DNA of 64,000 bases, from contig CM075993.1 of assembly GCA_038087875.1 (NCBI GenBank), positions 9,922,001 through 9,986,000 on the forward strand, read 5' to 3'. A program made the position numbers and the translations under genes. The notes beneath the pieces are model-generated. The model did not search any database, was not told the origin of the DNA, and saw only the letters and a program-made list of their open reading frames with translations. Source of the stretch: Malacoraja senta (taxonomy: Eukaryota). Positions within the stretch are counted from its first letter, which is position 1. Every line of letters begins with the position of its first letter. This document shows, piece by piece, positions 637 to 61,710 of the stretch.

Positions 637-1368
637 CGTGGTGGTGACAGTCATCCTCATGATGGTGGTGCTGGCTTAAGGGCCGGCCTGGCCTCTTCCT
701 CCCCCTCCAATTTCTTCTGCTGCTATACATTACTTTTGTTAGTTCCCTGTCTTCTGACGCTCTCCTGAACCAAGGGATGATTGGAAGCTTGGGATGGGAA
801 AACTTGATTTGAAGCATTGCCTTTCTCGTGCATACGGACAAACACAAATGCGGATGAATTAGTAACAGGAGGGGACCATTTGGCCTCTAGAGCCTGTTCT
901 TCTGTTCAATGAGAGTGTTGCTGATGTGACTGTAGCCTCCGCTCCCTGTTTACCTGTTTATCTGTGTAGGAAGGAATCTGGTTTACACCGAAGATAGACA
1001 TAAAGTGCTGGAGTAACTCAACGGGTCATGCAGCATCTCTGGAGAAAAAGGATGGCCGATGTTTCGGGTCAGAAGCTTTCTTCAGACTGCACCTATTTTC
1101 TATGTATCTATGTAAGTGGGGGAGGGAGGGGGGGGGGGAGAACTGCAGGTAGGAAAAGGCCCTACTTATCTCTTGCTTCTCTCTGTGCTTATCTGCTTAT
1201 TATTCTTCTGACTTAAAAATCTCCCGTCTCTGCTTCCACCGCTCTTAAGAAACATTGAAATTCAAGTAAATATTTATAAATAATTGGTTAAGAAGGAACT
1301 GCAGATGCTGGAAAAATCAAAGGTAGATAAAAGTGCTGGAGAAACTCAGTGGGTGAGGCAGCATCCTG

Positions 1369-1875
1369 ACGGGCACCCGAAAAAGGGACCACATCACCCC
1401 GATCCTGGCCTCTCTCCACTGGCTCCCTGTGCGGTTCCGTATAAACTTCAAGATCCTCCTCCATGTCTACAAAGCCCTCAATGGGCTTGCCCCCACCTAC
1501 ATAAAAAGTCTTCTCACCCACCACTCCACCTCCAGGCCCCTCAGATCGGCCGACTTGGGGTTGCTGAATATCCCGCGGTCTAGGCATAAGCTCAGGGGCG
1601 ACCGCGCCTTTGCGGTTGCAGCCCCTAGACTGTGGAACAGCATCCCCTTTCCCATCAGAACTGACCCCTCCATCGACTCTTTTAAGTCAAGACTAAAAAC
1701 TTATCTATACTCCCAAGCCTTTCCTGACGTTCTCTGAGTGAGGGCTACATGTATATATGTATGTAGTTTGTTTTTGTTTTATGCTATTCTTATAACAAAT
1801 GTAAAGCACTTTGGCCAACGAGAGTTGTTTTTTAAATGTGCTATATAAATAAATGTGACTTCACTTGACTTGACT
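1369..1875 (+). mobile_element. L2 3' fragment nested in a Penelope-derived repeat
   Basis: ORF 1429..1737 (FKILLHVYKAL...[15 protein letters not shown]) is an L2 C-terminus with a (TGACT)n tail. It splits host repeat GCAGCATC|TATGGAGCGAAGG (host about 1290-1368 and 1875-1928). Confidence 0.8.
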
Positions 1876-2019
1876 ATGGAGCGAAGGAAATAGGCAACGT
1901 TTCGGGCCGAAACCTTTCTTCAGACTGAAATGTAACATTCTCTCTCACAGCCAAACTTCTCCACCGGAATAAATATGGCACGGGTTCATGTGGCAGTTCA
2001 TCTGATCTTTAGTTTGACT

Positions 2020-2260
2020 TTGGTTTAGACATACAGCGCGGAAACAGGCTCGTCAGTCCACCGTCCGCGCCGACCAGCGATCTCCACACACCAACACTAT
2101 CCGACATACACTAGGGATAACTTACAATTATACCAAGCCAATTAACCTACAAACCTGTAAGCTACACTTTGGAGTGTGAAATGGAGAACTCGGAGAAAAC
2201 TCTTGCAGGTCACGGGGAGAATGTACAAACTCCGCACAGACAAACTACTGCTGCGCCACC
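2020..2260 (-). mobile_element. tRNA-derived V-SINE (HE1-like), internally deleted
   Basis: Reverse complement of the V-domain and CR1-type tail seen in other copies (e.g. 57440-57700). Confidence 0.7.
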
Positions 2261-2516
2261 ATGCCATCTTTGTCTGGGAGGTTAGGTGTCCACCACAGGA
2301 CCTGTGGTGCAATGCTGCAATGCCATTGGGAAGTGGCCACATGAGAATCTGTCGAGAAGTTTGTGATTTGTAAGTTTGTGTATGCACTCCAAATTTCTTA
2401 ACAATTGCATAGTGGGGGGAGGGGGGTGCAGGTATTATCGGGAAAGTCCTGGCATTTGAAAGGATAAATACTGTGTATTAGAATGAACAGTTAGTATTTA
2501 CCACCACCCATTTGCT

Positions 2517-2906
2517 CACCACCCATTTTCCGGCAACTGATGATCCGGCTCCAATTCAATTCGGACAGAATTACAAGTGCACTTGAAATCCCCCCCCCCC
2601 GAAGTCCCCCTGAAAATGTGGTGCCAAGGCTGGGTGAGGCAGCCGATCTCGACCTCTAACGGGACATCCTCGCCAATTGGCATGTTGAGTTTGCCCCCTG
2701 TGGCCGGGCTCTGGAACTCCAGCCTGGCCAGAGCCAGCAGATCCGTTCCCATAGCCAACTTCTGAGGCCGACTTTGCGGGCCGGTATCTTGGCTCTTCAG
2801 CTGCCTAGGTGGACCGCTGGACTCCTCTCGGAAGCTATGATCTATGTTGGTCCAGCAAAACAAATAAGAAGGCTCTGGAACCAAGGATGCTGGATATTTG
2901 GTGGTG
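2517..2906. mobile_element. MITE, same family as 20151-20507, opposite orientation
   Basis: Ends CACCACCCATTTTCCGGCA...TGCTGGATATTTGGTGGTG; subterminal sequence matches the 20151-20507 element. Confidence 0.65.
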
Positions 2907-58967: not shown

Positions 58968-59255
58968 TGGCAGCACAATGGTGCAGCTGGTAGAGCAGCT
59001 GCCTCACAGCGCCAGAGACCTGGGTGTGATCCTGACCTCGGCTGCTGTCTGTGTGGAGTTTGCAGGTTCTCCCTGTGACTGCATGAGTTTCCTCCGGGTG
59101 CTCCGATTTCCTCCCACATCCCAAAGACGTGCGGATTTGTAGGTTAACTGGCCTCTGTAAAGTGTAGGGAAAATGGAATATGGAACTAGTGTGAACAGGT
59201 GATCAATAGACTCGGTGGGCCAAAGGGCCTGTTTCCATGCTACAACTCTAAACTA
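58968..59255 (+). mobile_element. V-SINE
   Basis: tRNA head, V-domain and tail. Confidence 0.8.
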
Positions 59256-60574
59256 AAGTTAGGCTCAAACTAATTGACAAGAAATAATTATATTTCACAA
59301 CAGTCGGATACTGTCCTTTCTACAAAGAAGCACTCACCACCTCCCTAATGAATTTCCACTGTCCAATCTCTACCAATGAACCGGATGTATCAATGACTAG
59401 ATATTTAACAGCAAATATTTGCAGCGAATGGATCATGTACAGTCAGATGAGATTAGTTTGGCACAGACATTGTGGGCCGAAGAGCTGTTTTCCTGTGCGG
59501 TATTGTTCTCTGTTTTATGTTCTGTGAGTCACCCAAATACTGGGGCTCCAAGAGCATTTGAGAGGTGACTTTGCAGCAGGCAAGTCGCCTCAACTCTCAA
59601 ATGACATTTCCACCATCTGCAAGTCAACAACAGTAAAAAGCAAGTCCTTGCATCATCCAGGAAACAAACAGCCCACTCATTCATACCCTTACATGCCTCA
59701 ATCAAACCCCCAGATATCAACAAGACCCTTCCTAATCTAAGATGCACTTTGACAAGGAGGAGAAAGTGGACAATGTGAACTGGTATGTGGCCAAACCACC
59801 AAGACTTACCAACCCATCCAAGATAGACACACTTTGAAAATTCATTTTCAGGGGCTAGCATTGCCTGCTAGGCCAATATTCATTGCCCAGCTCTAATTGC
59901 CCTCAGGAACGTAGTTACAAGCCACTGTCTCAAATCCCTGCTGTCCTTCCAGTGAAGTGCTGTTAGGTCAGCAATGCCAGAATTTAGACCCAATGGTATA
60001 TTTCCAAGACCCAGATACTGTGTGATACTAGGTGGTGACATTCCCCTGCTTCTGCTGCCCTCGTCCTTTTAGTGTCAGACGTTGCAGTTTGGGAGGTGCT
60101 ATTAGAGTACCCTGGTGAGTAACTGGTGTATTTGTGGATGGTACACGTTGCAACCATTGTTTCAGCACTGCACATATTCTTCCTCCCAGTTTGAATGTCC
60201 TCTGGCTTCTCCAATTTTCTCCTTTATATAAACGTTGTGTAAGAGGTGAACTGTCTAATGTAAATTACCCCCTGTGCAGCTTGGCAGCTGAAAAGAAATG
60301 GGGGAAGAGGCCGGTATTTGATGGGCATAAAAGAATGGGCTACAGAGAAATAAGAGGGGAGTGGGATTGATGGGAACGGACCAGTGGTAGCTGGGATAGT
60401 CTCTATATGTGAGTGGCCTGTTTCATAGTAATCGACTCTGCTATTTATGCCCAGTTGGGCTTCAAACACCATGTGAGTAATTTCTGCAGTGGTGTCCTGT
60501 GGATAAGGTGACTGATCTCTGACAACCCTTCCTTTATACAAGTTATGACTATCAAGTCAAGACTGACTTTATGA

Positions 60575-60830
60575 TGGCAGAGGTACATCTGGTAGAGCTG
60601 CTGCCCCACAGCACCAGAGATCCTGATTCAATCCTGACCTCGGGTGCTGTCTGTGTGGAGTTTGCACCTTTACCATGACTGCAAGAGTTTCCTCTGGGTG
60701 CTCCGGTTTCCTCCCACATCCCAAAGACACGTGGATTTGTAGGTTAATTGGCCTCTGAATTGACCCTAATGTGTAGGGAGCAGATGAGAAAGTGGGATAA
60801 CACAGAACTAGTGTGAACGGGATGGCCGGT
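60575..60830 (+). mobile_element. V-SINE
   Basis: tRNA head and V-domain. Confidence 0.75.
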
Positions 60831-61569
60831 GTGCCAAAGGGCATGTTTGCATCCTCTCTCTCGAAACTACTTTGGAGCCTTCCCTCACAGTGGGAAATTT
60901 TGATCCCGCTGTGTGGGGATGTCTGTGTTAAAGACTTTCGTGTTCTGTGCTCTTCATTATTCGTATGGCTGTATGGCGACCACACATTTCACTGTACCAA
61001 TTGGTACACGTGACAAATAAATGTATCTTGTACTGGGATGTGTTCATTCTTTGATGCCCCCTGAATTCAGCTTTCCAAGGCCTGCATGTCACACCTGGTC
61101 AAACACTGCCTTGATGACATGGGCAATCAGTCTCACTTCACTCCCAAACTTCATCTCTTCAGTCCATGGCAAGACCAACACAGCAACAAGGTCTGGAATC
61201 CAATACTACTTACAAAACTAAAAAAAGGCAGCGAGTAGGTTAATCGTCAGTAGGTGCCATTTGAAGGGAACCGATCCAAAACATCACCTATCCGTGTTTT
61301 CCAGAGATGCTGCACGACCCGCTGAGACAAAGCCCTCCAGAACTGTGTCTTGTTTTGTAAACCAGCATCTGCAGTTCCTTGTGTCTCCACTTGACAGCAC
61401 TGTTGATACAGCTTTCATTGTTTTACTCACGATTGAGGTTAGAGTAATTTAATATCAATTAGTTAGAACAGATAATTGTTTGTGAACAAGCATTGTGAAT
61501 TTTCACACATTGCTCGGCATTGTAACTGTACTGGAAGAGGTGCAGTTGCTTCTGAAGAGTACAACTGTG

Positions 61570-61710
61570 AATAGACACAAAATGCTGAGTAACTCAGCGG
61601 GATAGGCAGCATGTCTGGAAAGAAGAAATGGGTGACGTTTCGGGTCGAGACCCTTCCTCAATCTGAAGAAGGGTCTCGACCCAAAACATCACCCATTCCT
61701 TCTCTCCAGA
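61570..61710. repeat. Penelope-derived palindromic repeat with back-to-back decayed hammerheads
   Basis: GACGTTTCGGGTCGAGACCCTTC...CTGAAGAAGGGTCTCGACCCAAAACATC. Confidence 0.8.

Follow-up and report, generated by a model that had tools for sequence, protein, structure and literature searches.

Hammerhead-bearing stumps of Neptune-like Penelope elements in the Malacoraja senta genome, probably copied from internal priming sites near an RNA start

In this work we have analysed a stretch of 64,000 nucleotides from Malacoraja senta (GCA_038087875.1, contig CM075993.1, positions 9,922,001 to 9,986,000; hereafter the window), in which a short dispersed repeat carries a minimal hammerhead ribozyme motif. 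Our results indicate that the copies of this repeat are decaying insertion stumps, 100–135 bases long, of several families of Neptune-like Penelope-like elements (PLEs), and that each has the hammerhead of the element in whole or in part. They probably arose when the reverse transcriptase (RT) of the element began synthesis at an internal site not far from where a capped RNA starts, and read this RNA, uncleaved, to its 5' end. The more specific proposal, that the capped RNA starts three bases before the hammerhead and that the approximately one million stumps are complete 5'-leader cDNAs made by internal priming, is in our judgement evenly balanced between true and false.

The genomic sample consisted of the window and 140 ten-kilobase stretches chosen at round coordinates, 1.464 Mb in total. 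A profile built from 13 genomic copies matched 679 copies in this sample and none in its reversed sequence, and extrapolation gives about 0.9 million copies, or 4.4% of the DNA. One 28-mer occurs 18,728 times without a mismatch in the genome of 1.94 Gb (its backwards control never does), in agreement with the very large copy number predicted originally. The core letters are kept in 162 of the 362 core-covering copies; core, stem II and the ACGU palindrome are kept together in 78, by extrapolation some 100,000 genome-wide. Head-to-head pairs, 131 in number, take up 262 of the 679 copies (39%).

The Penelope origin, proposed from the window alone, was borne out, as the motif sits in the terminal repeat of Neptune-like PLEs that bear an open reading frame (ORF). 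The module runs in the order GIY-YIG stop, pyrimidine-rich untranslated region (UTR) of about 100–210 nt, TCAGT, hammerhead and tail, and in most of 30 loci the motif lies about 100 nt past the GIY-YIG end. At locus L311 an open frame of 841 codons carries RT motifs, a CX4CXXC linker and GIY-YIG, and is followed by the motif of a second subfamily, with a UUCG loop and GUU/GCC at the cleavage site. This subfamily, which had also been described originally, exists and is tied to an autonomous element. The Pfam matches of L311 (RVT_1, E 1.2e-5; GIY-YIG, E 0.0019) are both under the curated cut-offs, and the motifs are visible in the translation. The frame (L311:1810-4560, stop to stop) is the longest found; its element is 5'-truncated, with an apparent 14-bp flanking target duplication by eye. 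The linker, present in L311, L302, L037 and at window 17123-17227, points to Neptune or Nematis PLEs, both of which have a CX2-5CXXC linker (PMC8557442). Partial tandems were seen at L037/L292 and at L314. Pfam gave no match on the GIY-YIG remnants of the window, which were identified by tblastn.

At least seven families can be told apart. Their seven consensuses are 93% alike over TCAGT plus hammerhead and 91% over the downstream tail, while the 65 nt upstream are 59% alike (54% when shuffled). The expectation that the core would be better conserved between subfamilies than its flanks thus holds against the upstream arm and fails against the tail, which is about equally conserved. That the core does not vary between families fits selection acting on the source elements, although the tail has been conserved as well.

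Where do the copies begin? Among the 417 unpaired copies 399 were scored for their 5' ends, the others being too short or at the edge of a stretch. Of the 273 that reach position 9, 147 (54%) stop in positions 0–9 (Fisher p 5e-73), against a background of 5–8% per 10 nt away from this interval and 11% and 23% in the adjacent bins, and the most frequent end points are the A and G of TCAGT, just ahead of the core. At the cleavage site there is no excess of 5' ends (7/399 versus 6.8 expected), and by eye head-to-tail junctions do not pile up at C17. A fossil record of in vivo cleavage was therefore rejected, and the absence of ends at the cut site suggests that the templates of insertion were uncut. 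It is silent on whether cut RNAs form, since these may be degraded.

Further evidence comes from head-to-tail junctions, at which the element is its own upstream neighbour, so that the letters on that side are known. At these self-junctions an untemplated G precedes AGT in 78 cases, versus 15 for A or T (about 66 versus 13 after arrays and apparent duplicates were collapsed by hand; C, which is templated, was excluded). An extra G was also seen by eye before ATCAGT and before GTCTG, each in 4/100 junctions, and would fit minor starts at neighbouring purines. We take TCAGT to fit the initiator consensus. In L1 and SVA insertions an untemplated 5' G has been attributed to copying of the cap (PMC3287187).

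Two classes of 3' end were seen, one close to profile position 105 (short tail) and one close to 135 (long tail). Tail length could be classified in 100 of the 131 head-to-head pairs, and 74 of these combine a long-tailed with a short-tailed arm (p 8e-7). The two arms of a pair agree at family-diagnostic sites more often than shuffled arms (0.83 versus 0.56; 86 pairs). Their junctions vary, with a peak at the TCAG-T-CTGA palindrome (29/250 arms at position 0); the low number of arms running upstream (2/250) was not used, as the pairing rule, with a gap of up to 60, forces this result. Target duplications of at least 8 bases flank 26 of 82 young unpaired copies, compared with 3 in the control, and 19 of the 26 lie within 5 nt of the 5' end of the copy, so that no upstream exon or flank was carried along. 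The two tail classes and the pairs match the published one-sided tail (PMC8557442) and the PLE of Anolis, which has two internal priming sites, extends both strands and uses uncleaved RNA as its main substrate (PMC11167929). A stem, AGAUGCUG / CAGCAUCU (profile positions 52-59 with 110-117), can form in copies with the long tail and not in those with the short one; it may be a recognition element for priming.

We propose that TCAGT acts as an initiator and that the RNA would start AGU-CUGA, three nucleotides before the core, which would explain the 2-bp helix I of the hammerhead. The long and short 3' ends would mark two priming sites in the tail, near this RNA start, and the capped RNA, copied uncleaved from an internal priming site to its 5' end, would leave a stump. 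In the head-to-head pairs priming would have taken place on both target strands, and the ends of the two cDNAs would have been fused, in many cases at a palindrome.

A different explanation of the sharp 5' boundary is that the RT stalls at the pyrimidine tract or at a splice-acceptor complex, or that ends are joined at a hot spot, TCAG-T-CTGA. We consider this possible but rather doubtful. A pyrimidine tract precedes the CAG in all seven families, and the junctions of the pairs peak at the palindrome, both in favour of such a site. In Drosophila virilis the Penelope start site lies 46 bp upstream of a 75-bp intron (PMC2377424), and the end of this intron maps to helix I (PMC4209133), so that TCAG after a pyrimidine tract may be a splice acceptor in the same place here. 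Yet a stall or a joining hot spot predicts no untemplated G at a single position, and spliced copies were sought and rejected, with 0 matches to one candidate donor-acceptor join and 0/157 among copies whose upstream part matches five longer family ends. RNA sequencing (RNA-seq) of a related organism likewise gave no listed splice joint. The missing junction is weak evidence, because PLEs retain introns.

The D. virilis start site and the possible splice acceptor are among several points that weigh against a capped start at the hammerhead edge and uncleaved copying from it. Where the target is random, G is only weakly in excess (GAGT 1507, AAGT 1155, TAGT 1085; about 750, 655 and 650 after 30 loci of each were classified), which also speaks for a stall or a joining hot spot. 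A duplication was found at 12 loci, and at none of the 4 G loci among them does a single extra G lie beyond it; a cap G at random targets was set aside as weak and not shown. The position control for the G signal comprises only 16 rows. In the RNA-seq of the one related organism, whose reads are dominated by embedded copies, molecule starts or ends form no pile, and at none of 24 long loci is there an element that has its two terminal repeats and is also complete at the 5' end. Finally, outside CpGs the core is mutated slightly less than the matched tail at A (4.0% versus 5.6%) and G (3.8% versus 7.1%), with T at 6.6% versus 6.3%. A weak constraint on the core may be behind this; alternatively, alignment bias or family age could produce it.

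The original prediction took the short copies for a non-autonomous family. This was not upheld: each short-copy variant matches the end of an ORF-bearing family and the copies have their own target duplications, so that a separate family is unneeded and the short copies are better read as products of the autonomous elements. The rival view would be a true non-autonomous family that is self-transcribed, from its own initiator or by read-through, and re-copied in trans through an internally recognised tail, which we regard as unlikely. Every full stump does retain the putative initiator and the tail, and in the RNA-seq of the relative both strands of the module have deep coverage. At three loci (L015:2324-2764, L058:2668-3108 and L147:2020-2460), moreover, a dead hammerhead-tail copy stands at the same site inside another dispersed repeat, preceded by a piece that is presumably similar to a short interspersed element (SINE), and spreads there as cargo. 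Read-through templates, however, should yield upstream transductions, yet most duplications adjoin the 5' end of the copy. The arms of a pair hold in common only 24 of 182 private variants, junctions are variable and arms unequal, and variants are shared with the ORF families; no master with a fixed structure of its own was found. A minority of the short copies may be re-copied stumps.

The identification of the motif as a minimal type I hammerhead proved correct. The core elements CUGANGA, GAAA and UH are present in type I order and their letters are invariant in all seven family consensuses, and the bulge after A9 and the G10.1-C11.1 pair are present. The palindrome at 15.2-16.2, without a loop 3, is ACGU in four consensuses, and the remaining three (4–10 copies each) carry CpG-decay forms of it. 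Helix I is as short as had been cautioned, 2 bp followed by an A-C mismatch, which matches only the D. virilis precedent and not the 4–5 bp of other PLE hammerheads. Differences between family consensuses are confined to loop 2, wobble-tolerant pairs, position 17 and CpGs. The variants had been called compensatory, which they are not, because the changes in stem II and helix I fall on one side only: the stem II closing pair is TA in 195 copies, TG in 36 and CG in 2, and the helix I pair TA in 116, TG in 31 and CG in 1, that is, a one-sided wobble from U-A to U-G, with only 2 and 1 copies of the two-sided form. Within the families of this genome no two-sided covariation was found. We infer that GUC-A and GUU-G are the two CpG-deamination products of GUC-G.

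Erosion of the motifs at CpGs was confirmed. The core CpG at 24-25, which includes G12, is mutated in 198/470 copies, and CpGs outside the core in 154/456 and 199/554; core CpGs decay at least as fast as the others, and the core is not spared. In folding predictions the hammerhead frame reaches −3.9 and −4.2 kcal/mol, versus −7.4 and −5.8 for alternative folds, and the ACGU duplex −3.1 kcal/mol. Predicted cofolding gave no dimer fold, and head-to-head pairs are predicted to form long hairpins that bury the motif. In published minimal motifs monomers are inactive and dimers weak (PMC4209133), and cleavage by the Anolis PLE hammerhead is assisted by protein (PMC11167929). We predict that the hammerhead of the source element is a weak ribozyme that requires a dimer or the protein of the element, and that the dispersed copies are almost all inactive. 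Head-to-tail arrays of a 39-bp unit, which holds one whole minimal hammerhead, with an extra G per junction, occur on contig C1002 (16562-16675 and 25827-26018) and are the best candidates for dimer folding found here.

Could the dispersed hammerheads be active and maintained, for instance by cutting host pre-mRNAs or as retrozyme-like circular RNAs? The 78 copies that retain core, stem II and ACGU, the slightly lower mutation of non-CpG core letters and the short arrays of whole motifs on C1002 would agree with this, and we nonetheless think it very improbable. Ends at the cleavage site are lacking in the DNA of the copies and in the RNA of the relative, a single minimal motif was uncleaved in vitro (PMC4209133), and the decay of core CpGs, the 2-bp helix I, the lower stability of the hammerhead frame and the cofolding without a dimer fold, and the hairpins of paired copies all stand against it.

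In the window, copies were located by core scan, BLAST and profile search. The profile search gave 34, so that the presence of the motifs was right and the original number of about 20 was not; all 18 of the places listed then do hold a copy. The whole core is covered by 19 of the 34, of which 8 keep all core letters, and 12 of the 34 are members of six head-to-head pairs. The motif was recognised by descriptor and from the literature rather than by Rfam, a search of which found no hammerhead family in the window at E<=5. Rfam matches to MIR1507 at 24737-24864 and 56638-56760, below the gathering score, are head-to-head hairpins and were discarded. Tandem units each with a complete hammerhead, as in a retrozyme-type array, are absent from the window; short arrays occur rarely elsewhere in the genome.

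The three cores described as intact (13750+, 55670+ and 27803−) are so, and their copies (13750+, 55670+ and 27834−) are the ones in the window that keep core letters, stem II and ACGU. They are a short-tailed copy at 13750-13838 (+; hammerhead 13750-13783) with a 14-bp target duplication, a short-tailed copy at 55670-55768 (+) with a GUU cleavage triplet, and a short copy at 27734-27834 (−) with an 11-bp target duplication, which starts at U2.1, so that its helix I is one pair. Two others were rightly called near-intact, because G10.1 is lost in one (1874-1926, −; UUCG/GUU-GCC subfamily, shortened tail) and ACGU has become ACAU in the other (43996-44089, −).

A motif had been placed just behind a GIY-YIG ORF end at 15290-15680, and this association stands. 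The longer PLE 3' end at 15271-15681 (+) comprises the last 22 codons of GIY-YIG (15271-15336), a pyrimidine-rich 3' UTR, a hammerhead about 210 nt downstream (15544-15577) with broken stem II, and a long tail. A frameshifted PLE remnant at 17123-17535 (+) holds the CX4CXXC linker and the GIY-YIG endonuclease end, and its terminal repeat has been cut off by another repeat. An old GIY-YIG remnant at 41662-41970 (+) is 39% identical to the L311 frame.

Head-to-head pairs lie at 24684-24922 (a predicted long perfect hairpin of −164 kcal/mol that buries both partial hammerheads), 30160-30270 (tail-only pieces), 37512-37667 (old and decayed), 44101-44273 (minus arm 44101-44235 with G8>A, short plus arm 44243-44273), 53437-53645 (one long and one short tail, plus arm with G12>A), 56603-56821 (UUCG/GUU-GCC subfamily, one long and one short tail) and 61535-61715 (junction at the TCAG-T-CTGA palindrome). 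An internally deleted minus-strand copy at 6477-6541 is followed by an inverted tail piece at 6547-6595. Decayed copies with long tails stand at 968-1088 (−; core letters intact, stem II broken), 7363-7492 (−) and 37819-37950 (+; 10-bp target duplication). Other copies begin within the core (25337-25429, +), at GAAA with a long tail (42174-42293, −) or in stem II (54492-54589, −), and one has G12>A through CpG decay (42432-42526, +). Old-family copies were found at 15767-15858 (−; without hammerhead), 19623-19711 (+; decayed stem II) and 61263-61383 (+; decayed), tail-only copies at 1286-1366 (−) and 31787-31870 (+; old), and an old, strongly decayed copy at 37032-37112 (−).

The window also contains other features. 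A WD40 exon at 16531-16839 (+; Pfam WD40, E 1.6e-5) is presumably WDR61/SKIC8-like, and the motif copies near it would be intronic. The start of a J-domain protein (MVKEMGYYD...), which we take to be DNAJA-like, lies at about 38110-38290 (−), beside a long GA-rich array (38351-39485). Long remnants of long interspersed elements (LINEs) with RT, which we assume to be CR1- and L2-like, occupy 21535-24757 (−) and 49290-52938 (+), with Pfam RVT_1 at 22156-23442 and 51098-52213, and a remnant of a Tc1-type transposase (PF01498) is found at 62128-62863 (−).

What do these stumps tell us? As a ribozyme find they are ordinary, as PLE hammerheads are published and the present copies are debris. Their value is that of a fossil record bearing on the role of the PLE hammerhead, which is stated to be unclear in PMC8557442. 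The ribozyme may be located in the first 32 bases of the transcript. If the start-site and internal-priming reading is true, the genome records the start site, both priming sites and a ribozyme uncut in nearly every insertion, and the hammerhead would be a possible self-decapping switch at the mRNA start rather than a processor of tandem transcripts. The same reading would explain how PLE ends came to reach about 4% of the genome.

The hammerhead in the terminal repeat, its link to PLEs, the dispersed single copies, the opposite-strand neighbours and the tail are all published already. Minimal hammerheads in the pseudo-long terminal repeats of metazoan PLEs (Cervera and De la Pena 2014, PMC4209133) have the same core, bulge after A9, G10.1-C11.1 pair and ACGU palindrome without loop 3, as well as the same terminal-repeat location, and most of their copies are also single and dispersed or opposite-strand neighbours. 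Stem II has 4 bp and helix I 2 bp here, compared with 7–8 and 4–5 in Schistosoma mansoni; helix I of D. virilis also has 2 bp. The 18,728 28-mers and about 100,000 extrapolated intact copies compare with descriptor hits of about 4,000 in coelacanth and 9,000 in Xenopus (PMC4209133). Cartilaginous fish are not named in the part of that paper drawn on here, and its supplementary alignment may list shark or ray motifs. Non-LTR retrozymes (PMC7229834; bioRxiv 10.64898/2026.07.22.740005) likewise carry a type I hammerhead of PLE origin, and one surveyed chondrichthyan genome had retrozymes with a mean unit of 363 bp (bioRxiv 10.64898/2026.07.22.740005); retrozymes are tandem repeats, whereas the copies of the window are dispersed or head-to-head. 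The literature searched, with subscription papers, Repbase and supplements outside its scope, gave no description of this family or of a 5' boundary at the hammerhead.

The endonuclease-positive (EN+) PLEs of the Neptune clade (Craig et al. 2021, PMC8557442) share the RT with C-terminal GIY-YIG, the CX2-5CXXC linker, the heavy 5' truncation, the adjacent inverted 5'-truncated copy and the 30–40-bp tail at one end, the last two being represented here by the 131 pairs and the 74/100 with one long and one short tail. The assignment of our elements to Neptune is proposed from linker and domain features, and Nematis has the same linker; the part of PMC8557442 drawn on here gives no account of a sharp 5' boundary at the hammerhead in Neptune-clade PLEs. 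Poseidon_Ac of Anolis (Frangieh et al. 2024, PMC11167929) belongs to another clade and was studied in vitro, and neither a start-site map nor stumps at the hammerhead edge are described in the portion of that work on which we rely. Its likeness to the present stumps lies in two internal priming sites about 30 nt apart, 3' of the hammerhead, in the extension of both strands, and in the use of uncleaved RNA, with no reads at the cleavage site.

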